From: Escherichia coli 042
GTDB taxonomy: Bacteria > Pseudomonadota > Gammaproteobacteria > Enterobacterales > Enterobacteriaceae
NCBI RefSeq assembly: GCF_000027125.1
Contig: NC_017626.1
Strand: one strand, 5' to 3'
DNA length: 64,000 bases
Of this stretch, positions 1,798-59,869 are shown in pieces. Within the stretch, counting starts at the first letter, position 1; each line of letters begins with the position of its first letter. The notes below the pieces were generated by a model, which worked only from the letters and a program-made list of their open reading frames with translations, was not told the DNA's origin and did not search any database. The position numbers and the translations under genes are program-made.

Positions 1798-2370
1798 ATG
1801 TTATATATAGATAAGGCAACAATTTTGAAGTTTGATCTGGAGATGCTGAAAAAGCATCGCAGAGCAATCCAGTTTATTGCCGTGTTGCTGTTTATCGTCG
1901 GGTTGCTGTGTATCAGTTTCCCGTTCGTCTCTGGCGATATTTTAAGCACGGTAGTGGGTGCATTATTAATATGCTCGGGCGTTGCGCTTATTGTTGGATT
2001 ATTCAGCAACCGCAGTCATAATTTCTGGCCGGTATTATCCGGTTTCCTCGTCGCAGTCGCCTATTTATTGATCGGCTATTTCTTCATCCGCGCACCGGAG
2101 CTGGGCATTTTTGCCATTGCGGCATTTATTGCCGGTTTGTTCTGTGTTGCAGGGGTTATTCGCCTGATGAGTTGGTATCGTCAGCGTTCAATGAAAGGCA
2201 GCTGGCTACAGCTCGTTATTGGTGTGCTGGATATCGTCATTGCCTGGATATTCCTTGGTGCAACGCCGATGGTGTCTGTAACTTTGGTTTCCACACTGGT
2301 GGGTATTGAACTGATATTTAGCGCCGCCAGCCTGTTCAGCTTCGCCAGTTTGTTCGTTAAGCAGCAATAA
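1798..2370 (+). CDS. hdeD: Acid-resistance membrane protein HdeD
   Basis: 190-aa multi-TM ORF divergent from hdeAB; matches HdeD. Confidence 0.93.
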   Translation: MLYIDKATILKFDLEMLKKHRRAIQFIAVLLFIVGLLCISFPFVSGDILSTVVGALLICSGVALIVGLFSNRSHNFWPVLSGFLVAVAYLLIGYFFIRAPELGIFAIAAFIAGLFCVAGVIRLMSWYRQRSMKGSWLQLVIGVLDIVIAWIFLGATPMVSVTLVSTLVGIELIFSAASLFSFASLFVKQQ

Positions 2371-3694: not shown

Positions 3695-4032
3695 TCAGGA
3701 CATAAGCAACTGAAATTGATGGCTGGCATGACGAGGGATGCAGATGCTGATTTCATTACCCCCGGTGATTACTAAAGGAGAGGCGAAAACGACTTTATTC
3801 CCCTGGTATGTGTATCCACCAGTAGAACCCTTCGTTGCCCGAATGCTGGCAGGAACTGTTGGCAGAACGGCAACATTTTTTTTGTCGTTGACCTCACCAT
3901 GTCGATCACTATGCCTGTATCCCACCTTACTGGCTGACAACCCCACTATGCCGCTGGTCTGTAAATCCCTCATATCTCTCCTCGCGCGCAATTTAAAGAA
4001 CCGTTATTTCTCAAGAATTTTCAGGGACTAAA

Positions 4033-9419: not shown

Positions 9420-9665
9420 GACTATCCCTTATATTTCATTACTGCGATTATTTCAATTTCAGTATACTAATGAAATGATGCCAGACTGTTTCTTAGCGCA
9501 AAAACTGCCAGATTTGGTAGGACCAAAATTTATCCACAAAGTAGTTTTGCATAACAGTTAATTGATAATAAGTAAATGCAACACGAATATATTTTCGCAC
9601 AGCGTATAGCTTATGTTTATAAAAAAATGGCTGATCTTATTTCCAGTAAAAGTTATATTTAACTT

Positions 9666-9771
9666 ACTGAGAGCACAAAGTTTCCCGTGCCAACAGGGAG
9701 TGTTATAACGGTTTATTAGTCTGGAGACGGCAGACTATCCTCTTCCCGGTCCCCTATGCCGGGTTTTTTTT
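9666..9771 (+). ncRNA. gadY: Small regulatory RNA GadY, cis-antisense to the gadX 3' UTR
   Basis: Sequence actgagagcacaaagtttcccgtgccaacagggagtgttataacgg...cccggtcccctatgccgggtttttttt matches the GadY sequence as I recall it and ends in a GC hairpin plus T8 terminator on the plus strand, in the gadX-gadW intergenic region. Confidence 0.75.
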
Positions 9772-9787
9772 ATGTCTGAGTAAAACT

Positions 9788-46973: not shown

Positions 46974-47059
46974 GAACGAAAAAGGCCGCAGAGTTTCACC
47001 CCTGCGGCCTGATCCGGGCGCAAATTGCCATTACGGCAGCCTGACGCCCGCATGACACG

Positions 47060-47167
47060 TTACTTCCGCTTATTCAGCGAGTTCACGATCAGACTGGCAA
47101 GAATGCCAGCAATGACCGGAGCCGCTAAATCATGCCAGAAGGCCATGCCCAGTTCTGCGAGCGTCAT
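47060..47167 (-). CDS. ldr: Ldr-family type I toxin peptide (35 aa), copy 1
   Basis: MTLAELGMAFWHDLAAPVIAGILASLIVNSLNKRK; ATG at 47165-47167. The ORF-track 80-aa ORF is an upstream in-frame extension. Confidence 0.85.
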   Translation of the reverse strand: MTLAELGMAFWHDLAAPVIAGILASLIVNSLNKRK

Positions 47168-47215
47168 ATAGCCGCCTCTGTTGTAATGACAACGTTTCGC
47201 GGCTATTCTTGAGTT

Positions 47216-47283
47216 GTTTGGGTTCAAGATTAGCCCCCGTGATGTTGTCAGGTGCATACCTGCAACGTGCGGGGGTTTTCTCT
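47216..47283 (+). ncRNA. rdl: Rdl-family antisense RNA, copy 1
   Basis: Plus-strand element ending in the hairpin gcccccg...cgggggttttctct within the ldr leader; coordinates inferred from my recollection of RdlD. Confidence 0.55.
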
Positions 47284-47542
47284 CTCCAGCAACCAATGCC
47301 ACCAGGGATTAAGCCCCCGCAACATTGCGCCTCACCGGAACCCTTCCGGCTTGCCGCTGATTCTACGGCCATTTTTGTTCGTCGAAATCCATCACTTCTT
47401 CACTCTGTGCTGCGCATTCCGCAGAATATTATCCGCTTGCAGCCGTTGCATTTTTCTTACGAAAAAGGCCGCAGAGTTTCACCTCTGCGGCCTGGTCCGG
47501 GCGCAAATTGCCATTACGGCAGCCTGACGCCCGTCTGACACG

Positions 47543-47650
47543 TTACTTCCGCTTATTCAGCCAGTTCACGATCATGCTGGCAAGAATGCCAGCAATGACC
47601 GGAGCCGCTAAATCATGCCAGAAGGCCATGCCCAGCTCTGCGAGCGTCAT
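47543..47650 (-). CDS. ldr: Ldr-family type I toxin peptide (35 aa), copy 2
   Basis: Same frame and length as copy 1; C-terminus ...ASMIVNWLNKRK; not reported separately in the ORF track. Confidence 0.8.
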   Translation of the reverse strand: MTLAELGMAFWHDLAAPVIAGILASMIVNWLNKRK

Positions 47651-47698
47651 ATAGCCGCCAGTGTTGTAATGACAACGTTTCGCGGCTATTCTTGAGTT

Positions 47699-47766
47699 GT
47701 GTAGGTTCAAGAATGGCCCCCGTCATATTGTCAGGTGAATACCTGCAACGTGCGGGGGTTTTCTCT
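47699..47766 (+). ncRNA. rdl: Rdl-family antisense RNA, copy 2
   Basis: Repeat-unit copy of the rdl element with terminator hairpin. Confidence 0.5.
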
Positions 47767-48025
47767 CTCCAGCAACCAATGCCACCAGGGATTAAGCCCC
47801 CGCAACATTGCGCCTCACCGGAACCCTTCCGGCTTGCCGCTGATTCTACGACTGTTTTTCTGTTCCGAAATCCATCACTTCTTCACTCTGTGCTGCGCAT
47901 TCCGCAGAATATTATCCGCTTGCAGCCGTTGCATTTTTCTTACGAAAAAGGCCGCAGAGTTTTATCCCTGCGGCCTGATCCGGGCGCAAATTGCCATTAC
48001 GGCAGCCTGACGCCCGTCTGACACG

Positions 48026-48133
48026 TTACTTCTGCTTGTTCAGCCAGTTCACGATCATGCTGGCAAGAATGCCAGCAATGACCGGAGCCGCTAAATCGTG
48101 CCAGAAGGCCATGCCCAGCTCTGCGAGCGTCAT
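48026..48133 (-). CDS. ldr: Ldr-family type I toxin peptide (35 aa), copy 3
   Basis: MTLAELGMAFWHDLAAPVIAGILASMIVNWLNKQK. Confidence 0.85.
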   Translation of the reverse strand: MTLAELGMAFWHDLAAPVIAGILASMIVNWLNKQK

Positions 48134-48181
48134 ATAGCCGCCTCTGTTGTAATGACAACGTTTCGCGGCTATTCTTGAGTT

Positions 48182-48249
48182 GTGTAGGTTCAAGAATGGC
48201 CCCCGTGATGTTGTCAGGTGCATACCTGCAACGTGCGGGGGTTTTCTCT
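48182..48249 (+). ncRNA. rdl: Rdl-family antisense RNA, copy 3
   Basis: Repeat-unit copy of the rdl element with terminator hairpin. Confidence 0.5.
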
Positions 48250-48508
48250 CTCCAGCAACCAATGCCACCAGGGATTAAGCCCCCGCAACATTGCGCCTCA
48301 CCGGAACCCTTCCGGCTTGCCGCTGATTCTACGACTGTTTTTCTGTTCCGAAATCCATCACTTCTTCACTCTGTGCTGCGCATTCCGCAGAATATTATCC
48401 GCTTGCAGCCGTTGCATTTTTCTTACGAAAAAGGCCGCAGAGTTTCACCTCTGCGGCCTGGTCCGGGCGCAAATTGCCATTACGGCAGCCTGACGCCCGT
48501 CTGACACG

Positions 48509-48616
48509 TTACTTCCGCTTGTTCAGCCAGTTCACGATCATGCTGGCAAGAATGCCAGCAATGACCGGAGCCGCTAAATCATGCCAGAAGGCCATGCCCA
48601 GTTCTGCGAGCGTCAT
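48509..48616 (-). CDS. ldr: Ldr-family type I toxin peptide (35 aa), copy 4
   Basis: MTLAELGMAFWHDLAAPVIAGILASMIVNWLNKRK. Confidence 0.85.
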   Translation of the reverse strand: MTLAELGMAFWHDLAAPVIAGILASMIVNWLNKRK

Positions 48617-48664
48617 ATAGCCGCCTGAGTTGTAATGACAACGTTTCGCGGCTATTCTTGAATG

Positions 48665-48732
48665 GTCTAGATGCAAGAATGGCCCCCGTGGTGTTGTCAG
48701 GTGCATACCTGCAACGTGCGGGGGTTTTCTCT
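48665..48732 (+). ncRNA. rdl: Rdl-family antisense RNA, copy 4 (RdlD-like)
   Basis: gtctagatgcaagaatggcccccgtggtgttgtcaggtgcatacctgcaacgtgcgggggttttctct, the copy closest to the RdlD sequence as I recall it. Confidence 0.6.
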
Positions 48733-48991
48733 CTCCAGCAACCAATGCCACCAGGGATTAAGCCCCCGCAACATTGCGCCTCACCGGAACCCTTCCGGCT
48801 TGCCGCTGATTCTACGGCCATTTTTGTTCGTCGAAATCCATCACTTCTTCACTCTGTGCTGCGCATTCCGCAGAATATTATCCGCTTGCAGCCGTTGCAT
48901 TTTTCTTACGAAAAAGGCCGCAGAGTTTTATCCCTGCGGCCTGATCCGGGCGCAAATTGCCATTACGGCAGCCTGACGCCCGTCTGACACG

Positions 48992-49099
48992 TTACTTCTG
49001 CTTGTTCAGCCAGTTCACGATCATGCTGGCAAGAATGCCAGCAATGACCGGAGCCGCTAAATCGTGCCAGAAGGCCATGCCCAGCTCTGCGAGCGTCAT
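48992..49099 (-). CDS. ldr: Ldr-family type I toxin peptide (35 aa), copy 5
   Basis: MTLAELGMAFWHDLAAPVIAGILASMIVNWLNKQK. Confidence 0.85.
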   Translation of the reverse strand: MTLAELGMAFWHDLAAPVIAGILASMIVNWLNKQK

Positions 49100-49147
49100 A
49101 TAGCCGCCTCTGTTGTAATGACAACGTTTCGCGGCTATTCTTGAGTT

Positions 49148-49215
49148 GTGTAGGTTCAAGAATGGCCCCCGTGATGTTGTCAGGTGCATACCTGCAACGT
49201 GCGGGGGTTTTCTCT
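49148..49215 (+). ncRNA. rdl: Rdl-family antisense RNA, copy 5
   Basis: Repeat-unit copy of the rdl element with terminator hairpin. Confidence 0.5.
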
Positions 49216-49574
49216 CTCCAGCAACCAATGCCACCAGGGATAAAGCCCCCGCAACATTGCGCCTCACCGGAACCTTTCCGGCTTGCCGCTGATTCTACGA
49301 TTGCTTTTTACCGTCAGCACCCGGCAATCTTCCTCATTGCGCGATGCCTTCCAGCTTAATTTCTTTATTTGCAATAGTTGCAGTTCATATCCGGGCTGAC
49401 TCCAGACTGGTAGTGAAATGCGCAATTTTGTAGAATTGCGCCTCCTCGCGACCTCCCCAGTGAATCTGTTGCCTCATTTTTTACATACTGCGTATTCGAC
49501 TTCTCCACCTGTTGCGCAAGAGAAACTGGGTTTATTCATTTTTGCGAGGCCGACTTCTTTCTGGACAGGACTTT

Positions 49575-54900: not shown

Positions 54901-55072
<172 letters not shown>

Positions 55073-55108: not shown

Positions 55109-56716
55109 TTATTCGATAGAGACGTTTTCGAAGTGATGTTTGCCTAATGGATCAACCACATAGCCTTTAACTTCTTTGCGTACCGGTTCAAACACGGTGG
55201 AGTGAGCGATGATCAGTGCCGGAGCCTGATCGTGCATCACCACCTGTGCTTGCTTATACAGCTCAATACGCTTGTTGTGGTCGTCAGTAGCACGTGCCGG
55301 TTGAATCAGATCTTCAAACGGCTTGTAGCACCATTTTGAGTAGTTGGAACCTTGTTCAGAAGCAGCGCAGCTGAACAGGGTGGCGAAGAAGTTATCCGGA
55401 TCCCCGTTGTCGCCAGTCCAGCCCATCATTACCGTCTGATGCTCGCCATCTTTCGCGCGCTTGAGGTACTCACCCCATTCGTAGGTGACGATTTTGGCCT
55501 GTACGCCCACTTTCGCCCAGTCTGCCTGAATCATCTCCGCCATGCGGCGAGCGTTCGGGTTATACGGACGTTGTACCGGCATCGCCCACAGGTCGATGGA
55601 GAAACCTTTTTCCAGACCCGCTTCTTTCAGCAAGGCTTTCGCTTTTTCGGGATCGTAGGTGTAGTCCTGAACGTCGTCGTTATAGCCCCACATGGTTGGC
55701 GGGATCAGGTTTTTCGCTGCCACGCCCGCGCCCTGATAAACCGCTTTGATGATCGCGTCTTTGTTCACCGCGTAGGTCAGAGCCTGGCGAACTTTCACAT
55801 CATCGAGTGGTTTTTTCTGCACGTTATATGAAAGATAGCCGACGTTCAGCCCCGGCATTTCCATCAGGTTGATGGATTTATCCTGCTTCATGCGAGCGAT
55901 GTCTGCCGGGTTCGGGTACGGCATCACCTGGCATTCATTCTTCTGCAATTTCGCGTAACGCACGGAAGCATCAGGGGTAATAGAGAAAACCAGCGTATCG
56001 ATCTGCGGTTTGGTGCCCCAGTAGCCATCAAACGCTTTGTAGCGGATACGGGAATCTTTTTGGTACTGCTGTAACTGGAACGGACCGGTGCCGATTGGGT
56101 TGAGGTCCAGTTTTTCCGGTGTACCGGCTTTCATCATCGCGTCAGCATATTCTTTTGACAGAATAGAGGCGAAGTCCATTGCCAGATCCGCGAGGAACGG
56201 CGCTTCCGGGCGAGTCAGCACGAACTGAACGGTGTTATCGTCCACCTTTTTCACTTCGCTGATCAGCTCCGGCAAGCCCATGCCTTCGAAGTATTCGTAG
56301 CTGCCGCCAGAAACTTTATGGTACGGGTTTTGCGCGTTTTTCTGACGATCGAACGAGAACACCACGTCATCGGCGTTCAGTTCGCGCGTCGGTTTGAATT
56401 CTTTATTGTCGTGCCACTTCACACCTTTACGCAGATGGAAGGTATAGGTTTTACCGTCTTCGCTGACTTCCCACTTTTCAGCGAGGCCCGGGATCACTTC
56501 GGTGGTGCCGATTTTAAATTCAACCAGGCGGTTATAAAGCGGCACGGAAGAGGCGTCATAGGTAGTACCGGAGGTAAACAACTGCGGGTTAAACCCTTCC
56601 GGAGATCCTTCTGAGCAATAAACCAGAGTTTTAGCCTGAACACTTGCTGCGACGGTCATAGCCACCAGGCTGAGACCAAGCTTCAGCATCCCTGACTTTT
56701 TCAAGGAAATACGCAT
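55109..56716 (-). CDS. dppA: Periplasmic dipeptide-binding protein DppA
   Basis: 535-aa ORF with signal peptide (MRISLKKSGMLKLGLSLVAMTVAASVQA); first gene of dppABCDF. Confidence 0.96.
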   Translation of the reverse strand: MRISLKKSGMLKLGLSLVAMTVAASVQAKTLVYCSEGSPEGFNPQLFTSGTTYDASSVPLYNRLVEFKIGTTEVIPGLAEKWEVSEDGKTYTFHLRKGVKWHDNKEFKPTRELNADDVVFSFDRQKNAQNPYHKVSGGSYEYFEGMGLPELISEVKKVDDNTVQFVLTRPEAPFLADLAMDFASILSKEYADAMMKAGTPEKLDLNPIGTGPFQLQQYQKDSRIRYKAFDGYWGTKPQIDTLVFSITPDASVRYAKLQKNECQVMPYPNPADIARMKQDKSINLMEMPGLNVGYLSYNVQKKPLDDVKVRQALTYAVNKDAIIKAVYQGAGVAAKNLIPPTMWGYNDDVQDYTYDPEKAKALLKEAGLEKGFSIDLWAMPVQRPYNPNARRMAEMIQADWAKVGVQAKIVTYEWGEYLKRAKDGEHQTVMMGWTGDNGDPDNFFATLFSCAASEQGSNYSKWCYKPFEDLIQPARATDDHNKRIELYKQAQVVMHDQAPALIIAHSTVFEPVRKEVKGYVVDPLGKHHFENVSIE

Positions 56717-56750: not shown

Positions 56751-57295
56751 CCCTTTGCAGTGGGTTGTCGCTGCCTGACCTTTTTTGTTTTTTGCCCGGT
56801 CGGGTCAACGTTATGAGGTGGGGATGCCGTACTAATTAACATCAGTGTAACAGTGCGGATCCTCCATAAAATGCCCCTCGTGACCTACAATCTGTCAACA
56901 GAATGTGAAAACGTCAATACAGCCAACCGGGATTTACACCAACGGTGAGAATCCACAAACAAAGATTAAAAAAACTTCAAACAGCTATTTGCAGCAGAGA
57001 AATTTGTGCTACTCCAACATGACCAGAACAATCAGCTTAATATTTAGCAACAATTGGTGATTAAGTTTTATGCATTTTGTGAAAAAAATCTGAGGAAAAG
57101 GTGGATATCTGAGCGATTAATACCATGAACGCTAAAACGCACAGCGGAAAATGCCAGCGCCAGCCATAAGTAACGCAAAAAAAAATTTAAGCAAATATAA
57201 AAAAAGACAATGGTTTCTGTCACAAATCCGTTAATGGATAGTGAGATATGGGCGCAAATTTGGCAGGAAAATGTGTGGTGTGTAGGTCGAATAAG

Positions 57296-57794
57296 GCGGT
57301 CGCGCCGCATCCGACAATGGGCCGGCACATTTGCCTGATGCGACGCTGGCGCGTCTTATCAGGCCTACGTCGAATCGAACCTCCCTGCCCCCGGAAGTTC
57401 TCATCCTCTTCAGGCCGCAGAAAGCAAAAAACCAGCCCGTAGGCTGGTTTTTCTAAATTGGTCGGTGATAGAGGATTACTCGCCACTTCGTGGCTCGCCC
57501 TGCGGGCCGTTGCTGGCGCAACGTTCTCTCGCTTCGCTCGAGTCGAATCTCCCTGCCCCCGGAGGTTCTCATCCTCATAGGCTACAAATGCAAAAAAGCC
57601 TGCTCGCTGAGCAGGCTTTTCGAATTTGGTCGGTGCCAGAGGATTACTCGCCACTTCGTGGCTCGCCCTGCGGGCCGTTGCTGGCGCAACGTTCTCTCGC
57701 TTCGCTCGAGTCGAACCTCCCTGCCCCCGGAGGTTCTCATCCTCATGGGCTACAAATGCAAAAAAGCCTGCTCGCTGAGCAGGCTTTTCGAATT
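57296..57794. repeat. Three tandem imperfect direct repeats (about 150-185 bp), each ending with a terminator hairpin plus a roughly 20-nt copy of the proK 3' end
   Basis: Units at about 57296-57479, 57480-57648 and 57649-57794. Each contains tcgaa(t/c)ctccctgcccccgga(a/g)gttctcatcctc, a hairpin (aaaaaaccagcccgtaggctggttttt or aaaaaagcctgctcgctgagcaggctttt) and aatttggtcggtg(at/cc)agaggatt, which matches the proK 3' terminus. Confidence 0.7.
57762..57790 (-). terminator. Rho-independent terminator of proK
   Basis: On the minus strand aaaagcctgctcagcgagcaggcttttttg, 5 nt after the tRNA 3' end. Confidence 0.65.
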
Positions 57795-57871
<77 letters not shown>

Positions 57872-57962
57872 AATGCGGGGCGCATCTTACTGCGCAGATA
57901 CGCCCTCGTCAATCCCTTAATAGCAAAATGCCTTTTGATCGGCGAGAAAGTCAGCAGGCCTC

Positions 57963-59654
57963 TTAGTTAGCCGCTGCCTCTTTTGCCTGCGGGATGTGAC
58001 ACCAGTTGTTGTTTTCGTTAATTCCACCATCAGGTGAAGTATAGCCAAGACACCCCATGATGGTGTCGTACAGCTCTACGTGACGGCGTGGCACTTTCAT
58101 GTCGGCTTCTTTTTTCAGCTGCGCAAATGCCTGCGCATTGGCCGGATTTTCCAGATATTTATCCGACATCCAGACCATCATCGGCACACGGAACTGTTCC
58201 GGCGGTGCCAGTTCACGCGGCGTGCCGTGCAGGTGCTCGCGTTCGTTAATTGACTCACCGTGGTCAGCTGCGTAGAACACAATCGCTTTCTTATCGCGAA
58301 CCTGATCAATCACGCTGGAGATAAAGTGATCCACATAGGTCACCGAGTTGTCATAGGAGTTGATCATCTGCGCTTTGGTACAGCCGCTATCAACACCAAT
58401 ACATTCCGGCTTCCACTGCGCAAAGCTGCGCGGGTAACGCTGGGTGTAGTTAAAGTGCGAACCTTTGGTATGCAAAATGATCAGATGCTTGCCATCCGGG
58501 TTGCGCCCCAGCGATTGCTGCATTTCGTCTACCAGCAACATATCATCTACCGGCTTGCCACGGTTACGTGGCTCCGCACCAATCTGCTCACGATAAGCAA
58601 TGTTGTCCGCCATCGTGTTGCTGTAGAACCACATTTCGCTCTGCATAGCGTAGAGGTCAGAACTGAATCCTAACTGCTTCAGCACCGCGAAAATGTTCTG
58701 TTCTTTTAATGTGCGCTGCGGATTATCTTCCGCTCCACCCTCTCGTACAAACATGCAACGCAGAGAAAGTTTGGTCGCCGTGTCACAAGAATAGCCACGG
58801 AACGCCGCCAGATTTTTCTCCTGGGCCAGCTTCGGCGTGGTATTACGCTCATAGCCGAAAATGCCCATATGGTCCCAACGCGTAGTTTCACCGATGATAA
58901 ACACGACATAAGTGTCATCAACGTTTTGCGGTGCCTGATAAGTGAATTTCTTCGCCGGATTAAGCAATGAATTGTTATCGGAAGATTCATCGACCCGCGC
59001 CCAGGCATACAGCCCCAATGCCGAAAGCCAGTTTGATGGCAGATAAGAGTTCGCTACGACGCCGCCATAGCTTGGCAAATCAACACCGGTCGCCCTCTCC
59101 ACTTTCTTCTGCTGGATATCCAGCAAACGAATCGGTGCCCAAACCATAATACCCGCTAGCACGACGACCGCCAGGCTGCGAATACGCTGTCCAGGGGTTC
59201 GCAGCTGTCGGAGCAAGGTGTAACGACAGCGGTTATTCCAGATAAGGATAAGAGGCAATGCACTTACGGCGATTAACCAGAGAATAAAGTTCAGACCAAC
59301 AACTTCTTTTGACAGGTCGATATCGGTGGTCATGACGGAAGCGATGATGCCATAACCAATGACCACATTAAGGAAGGTCATGTAATAGCTGGCACCTGCG
59401 GAAAAGAGCACCACCAGCGACGCCAGAATACGCCAACTGCGGCGGCCAAACAGCGAAAGAAGACGTAGTAAAAAGAAGGTCACCAGTACGGTGGCGGCCA
59501 GTTCAACAACAGCAGAAATGCCTTTCCAGACGGTAAAATCGTGCGCATAGCTGCCGAAGCGGCGGTAAAAAACCGCGCCATTCATAAAAAGGCCAATATA
59601 GATTGCAAGCAAAAAGCTCAGCTTCTGCTGTGTAATCGATTTGATGTATCTCAT
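57963..59654 (-). CDS. eptB: Kdo(2)-lipid A phosphoethanolamine transferase EptB
   Basis: ORF 57963..59687 trimmed to the ATG at 59652-59654 ([26 protein letters not shown]...); 563 aa; N-terminal TM helices plus sulfatase-like domain. Confidence 0.92.
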
Positions 59655-59869
59655 GCAAACAAACCCTGGGCAAACAGGTGATAACACCCTGCTTAGTGGC
59701 TTTTCAGGCCAGGCAGGGGAAAAGTGCGGAGGTAGTCAGATAAGTAAAATCTACACGCGCGAATAAGTAGACCACAGCAAAGGGAAAAAGTGTGGGGAAA
59801 GAGTGTGCATGAAGCACAAATTTACAAAAATGCAAGTTTGAAAAGAGACTTTAGCGTTACAAAAAGCAG

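Follow-up and report, generated by a model that had tools for sequence, protein, structure and literature searches.

Tandem repeats downstream of proK in Escherichia coli 042 as a probable array of RtT elements, a known tRNA-linked repeat family

What are the repeats that follow proK in Escherichia coli 042, where pieces of the tRNA gene recur downstream of the gene itself? In the 64,000-nt stretch of contig NC_017626.1 analysed here (the window), proK encodes tRNA-Pro(CGG) at 57795–57871 on the minus strand (ARAGORN; Rfam tRNA model, 60.7 bits) and lies between eptB (57963–59687) and dppA (55109–56716), both also on the minus strand. A promoter-like site for proK at 57884–57912 (minus strand; TTGACG, 17 nt, TAAGAT; consensus scan) is placed in agreement with the 4–6-nt 5′ leader of K-12 proK (PMC5291269). 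An earlier note, made from the sequence alone, had described three imperfect direct repeats downstream of proK and attributed them either to serial integration and excision at a tRNA att site or to the decay of tandem tRNA genes. Our analysis leads elsewhere: the repeats very probably form a tandem array (VNTR) of RtT elements, a tRNA-linked repeat family, and as such the array is real but ordinary and already known.

Read along the minus strand from the 3′ end of proK, the array consists of unit 1, unit 2, a truncated unit 3 and a REP pair. Unit 1 (168 nt; 57627–57794) comprises the trailer AAUUCG, terminator T1 (57760–57788; hairpin GCCUGCUC-AGC-GAGCAGGC, then six U) and RtT copy 1 (57627–57762), and unit 2 (168 nt; 57459–57626) likewise contains a trailer, terminator T2 (57592–57620) and RtT copy 2 (57459–57592). 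Truncated unit 3 (89 nt; 57370–57458) carries the trailer AUUUAG, a terminator T3 (57426–57452) that differs from T1 and T2, and only the 5′ part of RtT, stopping at GGAGGUUCGAUUCGA; all of these features lie on the minus strand. Tandem Repeats Finder gives a period of 168 nt over 57370–57813 (2.6 copies, 91% matches, score 730), and a second repeat search returns two 168-nt copies of 95% identity together with three-copy sub-blocks in an agreeing register. The array is therefore where the three repeats had been placed, but it is made of two complete units and one truncated unit rather than three equal ones. The REP pair (BIME; 57285–57365, no strand assigned; naRNA4 model RF02564, 70.5 bits against a threshold of 59.5), which had been assigned to the inside of one unit, is present, but it adjoins truncated unit 3 as the distal neighbour of the array and lies outside the repeat unit.

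The T arm and 3′ end of proK are the source of the tRNA-derived copies within the repeats. An exact search for the proK 3′-end pattern AATCCTCT(AT/GG)CACCGACCA finds exactly three sites in the 64-kb window, at 57459, at 57627 and in proK itself at 57795, where the chance expectation is none; the tRNA 3′-end copies of the earlier note are thus genuine. The tail of RtT copy 2 (57459–57477) matches the proK 3′ end exactly, and that of copy 1 (57627–57645; AAUCCUCUGGCACCGACCA) is the two-base 'GG' variant. The T-loop-like motif reported in the repeats is also there: GGAGGTTCGA, which spans the 5′ strand of the T stem and half of the T loop, has four sites on the minus strand between 57375 and 57822, at 57375, 57543 (with one mismatch) and 57711, and in proK at 57813.

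The sequence between these copies identifies the array. RtT copies 1 and 2 match Rfam family RF00391 with 100.2 bits (E 1e-20, full model length) and 96.8 bits, respectively, against a gathering threshold of 45, covering model positions 1–130 of 130. Both are members of this family, and each full unit has the same anatomy, in which RtT occupies 134–136 nt and runs from a 5′ arm GAGGAUGAGAACCUCC through a loop, GGAGGUUCGA, a hairpin core of ~66 nt and GAGUAAUCC to the proK 3′ end, closing with CCA. The RtT family was first described behind tyrT and is curated as RF00391. In keeping with it, the proK units lie directly 3′ of a tRNA gene, on the same minus strand, from 57794 downward; they are repeated in tandem with a unit of ~170–180 bp (a 168-nt period here; four copies at tyrT in K-12); and they have a secondary structure with covariation, in which helix P1 covaries and hairpins Hb and Hd show compensatory changes. 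Covariation support for the RtT structure has been reported previously (PMC7657543). RefSeq places one or two 'RtT sRNA' features beside tRNA-Pro, including at a 99.9% identical locus in strain MEW, and thousands of E. coli genomes are annotated with RtT at the proK locus; the proK elements thus belong to a family already recognized there. A hammerhead-like reading of GAUGAG...CGA was rejected, as essential core bases mismatch and no ribozyme family scored in Rfam.

Integrative elements classically insert at tRNA 3′ ends, and the 19-nt copies are genuine; repeated insertion into the proK 3′ end and excision from it, with a copy of that end remaining each time, could produce such a pattern. The units are nevertheless exactly 168 bp long, contain neither integrase nor cargo, and have ORFs that are not conserved; strains differ by whole units, that is, by multiples of 168 bp. 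The copies are separated by a conserved RtT RNA that tyrT and many other tRNA loci share, the similarity often runs past CCA through trailer and terminator as expected of tandem duplication, and the locus is syntenic across genera. We therefore set aside the att-site proposal, and consider such scars very improbable.

The RtT array varies among E. coli strains in the manner of a tandem repeat. The sequences that flank the locus were recovered from 5,425 of 5,426 complete E. coli genomes. In a sample of 60 records, evenly spaced from 5,445 ranked records and scored by RefSeq annotation, ~48% have no annotated RtT at proK, ~43% have one and ~5–7% have two, and locus lengths among the sampled genomes differ by 168 bp. 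Copy number thus moves between 0, 1 and 2 full units in 168-bp steps: ATCC 25922 has none, K-12 has one, and E2863, JCH8249, MEW (near-identical to the window) and the window itself have two. The truncated unit beside the REP accompanies 3 of the 4 other E. coli strains compared (K-12, ATCC 25922 and E2863, but not JCH8249), as well as MEW and the window. Units are more similar within one genome than between genomes, and the two units of E2863 are identical; for this reason we infer that the array grows and shrinks by unequal homologous recombination between 168-bp units, and that gene conversion homogenises the units and their tails. An rtT VNTR is on record in Salmonella Paratyphi A (PMC2658671). 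The order eptB-proK-RtT-dppA is conserved in E. albertii, Citrobacter, Pluralibacter and Pseudescherichia. Matches of at least 99% to the allele of the window come from just 4 E. coli records. An apparent covariation of CCC/CCU with the GG/AU variants between the two window copies was dropped, since JCH8249 shows the opposite combination.

This variation bears on function. Because about half of the sampled E. coli genomes have no intact copy, RtT at proK is dispensable. Copy 1 folds with −55.9 kcal/mol (z −2.6), whereas copy 2 folds more weakly (z −0.85), no better than shuffled sequences, and carries a G-to-A change in the conserved GGUUCGA. The mutation and weak fold of copy 2 and the roughly half of sampled genomes without an intact unit, together with the missing read-through RNA discussed below, fit a neutral passenger as well as they fit a functional RNA.

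Beyond proK, we scanned one genome per species with an RtT-core pattern and recovered at least 120 loci, mostly in Gammaproteobacteria. Among the matches listed, the core lies within 600 nt (typically 110–140 nt) 3′ of a same-strand tRNA in 107 cases, behind tRNAs of at least 18 anticodon classes that include Tyr, Pro, Arg, Ser, Gln, Glu, Asp, Lys, Thr and Val. In 77 of these 107 listed cases, the stretch of 18 nt that follows GAGUA repeats the 3′-terminal 18 nt of the element's own tRNA exactly, while just 2.5% of mismatched tail–tRNA pairings among the listed matches reach 90%, and in many of the listed loci the similarity runs on beyond CCA through trailer and terminator. Relatives behind Gln, Lys, Arg and Val tRNAs reach the Rfam threshold, and those behind Ser, Thr, Asp, Glu and some Arg tRNAs fall below it; we treat tRNA-linked elements below the RF00391 threshold as relatives, not as curated members. 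A tRNA-matching rule for RtT ends was not found described in the searchable literature, and this family-wide rule, by which RtT ends track the neighbouring tRNA, may be the only part of the present analysis that is new.

The helices of these elements are conserved by compensatory change. In the outer helix P1, the 5′ arm pairs with AUCC, the copied T-stem 3′ strand and inner acceptor bases, and this arm covaries with tRNA identity. Among the matches listed, P1 pairing stands at 84%, compared with 70% in shuffled pairings and at most 54% when the arm is slid, and double-sided changes number 27 versus 12, a value reached by 0 of 500 shuffles. On the tRNA-sense strand, G:U pairs outnumber A:C pairs by 10 to 3. 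Hairpin Hd reaches at least 4 bp in 80% of the listed units versus 2.3% of shuffles, with 35 different 5-nt strands. P1 alone was scored by pair counting, as MAFFT misaligned the variable hairpins, which were tested by script.

These observations also bear on whether the units descend from tandem tRNA-Pro genes that have decayed, the second proposal of the earlier note. The units do keep GGAGGUUCGA and AAUCCUCU..CCGACCA, which correspond to both T-arm halves of proK and its acceptor 3′ strand, and the tRNA-derived T-loop halves and 3′ tail prove to be a genuine feature of the whole family. At other loci the core is even joined to a degenerate tRNA 5′ part. The tRNA and covariance-model search that had been suggested, however, detects no tRNA fold in the units (ARAGORN; Rfam tRNA model, E up to 10) and finds only proK, even though the tails do copy the tRNA 3′ end. 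Similarity to proK is confined to GGAGGUUCGA and the 19-nt tail; the ~66-nt core, a conserved RtT module, and the GGAUGAGAAC arm are not tRNA sequence, and each is conserved, through compensatory changes, where the tRNAs in front are unrelated. The T-stem 5′ strand of the tRNA is matched in just 10 of 95 units among the matches listed, a count on which we also rejected the idea that the RtT 5′ flank is the tRNA's own T-stem strand. The fused forms (L034, 79–206; L059, 131–275, minus strand; L114, ~2130–2165, minus strand) combine a degenerate tRNA-Tyr or tRNA-Ser 5′ part with the core, and their fusion point is the T loop (TTCGA, core, ATCC); in appearance they are deletion products, a tRNA and its RtT having lost what lay between their GGUUCGA repeats, rather than ancestors. 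Decay of tRNA-Pro copies is accordingly an improbable origin for the units, although it correctly recognizes their tRNA-derived ends.

The tRNA-tracking ends of RtT elements invite a functional reading, which we put forward tentatively and on balance doubt: RtT could be a tailored mimic of the acceptor and T-arm 'top half' of the tRNA that it follows. Given the tail copy and the covarying 5′ arm, such an element would display the single-stranded ...NCCA end of that tRNA on a conserved core. It might then serve as an isoacceptor-specific decoy or sensor, for example for 3′-end processing enzymes or in the starvation response, and the 0–2-copy variation at proK would amount to dosage variation.

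The core is found behind tRNAs of at least 18 anticodon classes, between GGUUCGA and AAUCC, the two universal halves of the T loop, and core-like copies occupy multiple non-tRNA sites in some MAGs; both facts could alternatively point to a small, non-autonomous mobile element with tRNA T loops as its target. Yet the cores group by tRNA type across genera and not by genome, from which we conclude that inheritance is mostly in place; the proK copy keeps its synteny from one genus to the next, and no recombinase is associated. The one inter-locus move seen took tRNA and RtT together, as homologous conversion would. At the eptB-dppA locus of Silvania confinis (L100, 9323–9570), the tRNA is tRNA-Pro(UGG) instead of Pro(CGG), and the RtT behind it has a UGG-type tail and is ~95% identical to the two RtT units behind argX-hisR-leuT-proM in Escherichia sp. 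ESNIH1 (L032, 10163–10572); this resemblance suggests that tRNA and RtT may have been exchanged as a block between loci. We rate a T-loop-targeting mobile element as quite improbable, a minor possibility beside RtT inheritance in place.

Multi-copy elements with the 3′ half of the RtT core (GAAC-hairpin-GGCCCGNAGGGCGAG-hairpin-GAGUAAUCC) occur in Rhodanobacteraceae and other Gammaproteobacteria MAGs (L012–L014, L019, L045–L050, L003, L004, L089, L110 and L122). They lack GGUUCGA as well as a tRNA neighbour and a tail that resembles a tRNA, and Rfam reports no family at threshold for the seven such loci searched (L003, L012–L014, L047, L049 and L110). These elements may be an undescribed relative.

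The repeats of tyrT encode the small arginine-rich protein Tpr, and a similar product of the proK units might be supposed from the ORFs of 41 and 54 aa that begin at the AUG of GGAUGAG in each unit, with weak similarity to K-12 Tpr (6/12 residues, E 0.003). Over 49 distinct units, however, the frame is not conserved (22, 16 and 11 units in the three modulo-3 classes), and an early stop interrupts 28 of the 49, in 15 of those after 5 codons. The variation instead takes the form of compensatory base pairs and hairpin length. As the reading frame is not conserved, a Tpr-like peptide is scarcely credible.

We next consider what the array would do when proK is transcribed. T1, T2 and T3 fold with −21.9, −21.9 and −19.8 kcal/mol (z ~ −5; −5.2 for T1), each followed by U6, which upholds the reiterated strong terminators of the earlier note. 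A consensus pattern scan for terminators listed none at the array, and folding and published mapping were used instead. The K-12 counterpart of T1 is near-identical, differing in one loop base, and has been verified by experiment (PMC5291269). The sequence of T3, AAAAACCAGCCUACGGGCUGGUUUUUU, is closer to the proK trailer of Citrobacter werkmanii (L005) than to the usual E. coli trailer. In K-12, the primary proK transcript is ~113 nt long and ends at the first terminator, RNase E cleaves between GACCA and AAUUCG, and northern blots show no read-through or longer species (PMC5291269). Carried over to the window, this measurement would mean that nearly all proK transcription stops at T1. Because K-12 proK transcripts end at the first terminator, RtT-Pro RNA would be made by read-through only; its expression is probably poor, and at the proK locus it may not be produced at all.

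The tail of unit 1 is followed by the trailer AAUUCG and a near-identical terminator, and that of unit 2 by AUUUAG and a different hairpin. With trailer and terminator repeated after each tail, any read-through RNA would be cut after CCA as proK is and then stopped again, so that the terminator stack would also insulate the dppA promoter region. The K-12 rttR annotation, which begins immediately behind tyrV and ends with the CCA of the repeat, would fit processing at the CCA site. Release as a stable RNA from a tRNA operon transcript is known for tyrT only (Bosl and Kersten 1991, as cited in PMC4986893), and secondary citations link tyrT rtT to the amino-acid starvation response. A literature search found nothing on proK together with RtT, nor on the dppA leader.

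Insulation could even be the sole selected function, with three terminators shielding dppA from the proK promoter and RtT as a passenger. The three hairpin-plus-U6 terminators, the efficiency of T1 in K-12 (PMC5291269) and the dispensability of RtT copies in about half of strains agree with this. Strains with zero full units, though, still have a single terminator and a single truncated unit, which makes additional copies unnecessary; tyrT-type RtT units have no intrinsic terminators; and the RtT helices are kept by covariation independent of terminators. Insulation as the only selected role is therefore unlikely, a minor possibility.

The array had also been placed in a long dppA leader, from where it might affect dppA or proK transcription. 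It lies ~650 nt upstream of the dppA ATG (56716), and −35-like hexamers at 56893–56925 lie between the two. With a dppA leader of ~165 nt, the array would be upstream of the dppA promoter and is probably outside the leader; the earlier placement is probably wrong.

Several neighbouring features were noted. A promoter-like site at 57194–57223 (minus strand; GTGACA, 18 nt, TATATT; 10/12 matches) sits between the REP pair and the dppA promoter region and is directed at dppA. A 230-aa ORF at 57220–57912 (minus strand), which crosses proK and all units, is an artefact of stop-free repeats. Farther away, 46976–49309 is a 483-bp tandem array (4.8 copies, 95% matches) with five rdlD antitoxin RNA matches (47216–49213); it is an expanded LDR (ldr/rdl) toxin–antitoxin repeat, at a position where K-12 presumably has a single ldrD/rdlD. 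Other Rfam matches in the window, GadY (9663–9776), ES205 (3812–3883) and ES036 (CssrF; 55009–55051), are ordinary E. coli sRNA loci.

For the window, then, the array is of little consequence: an annotated, polymorphic, dispensable and probably weakly transcribed family member. It also serves as a caution that a tRNA 3′ end repeated next to a tRNA gene need not be an integration scar. The RtT family itself remains a small puzzle 35 years after its discovery, a conserved structured RNA in many Gammaproteobacteria whose ends track the neighbouring tRNA, and the natural 0-, 1- and 2-copy proK alleles would allow simple isogenic tests.

Among known systems, the closest counterpart is the RtT array at tyrT-tyrV (rttR; 178-bp repeats). 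K-12 has one RtT at proK and four at tyrT-tyrV, one of which is annotated rttR; the K-12 proK and tyrT cores are 76% identical, and each tail matches its own tRNA. Like the tyrT-tyrV elements, the proK units give a full-length covariance-model match on the same strand directly after a tRNA, form tandem units of ~170 nt that each end with the 3′ end of the neighbouring tRNA and CCA, and contain the core hairpins and the GGAUGAGAA...GGUUCGA...GAGUAAUCC motifs. Unlike them, the proK units carry a proK-specific tail and arms and a strong intrinsic terminator, which the tyrT units lack, and the proK array ends in a truncated unit beside a REP. Among the tRNA 3′ external transcribed spacer RNAs, 3′ETS-leuZ resembles RtT-Pro in that its RNA comes from the trailer of a tRNA transcription unit and is freed by tRNA processing enzymes, as is predicted for RtT-Pro; it differs in being a short, Hfq-dependent sponge that is not repeated in tandem and carries no copy of a tRNA 3′ end. 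attL/attR repeats share a duplicated tRNA 3′ end downstream of an intact tRNA, whereas the proK array has no element between the copies, a fixed 168-bp period and a structured RNA between them, and its duplication runs on through trailer and terminator. Finally, the palindrome pair at 57285–57365 matches the REP-derived model as REP/BIME elements do, and stands beside the repeat unit rather than forming part of it.
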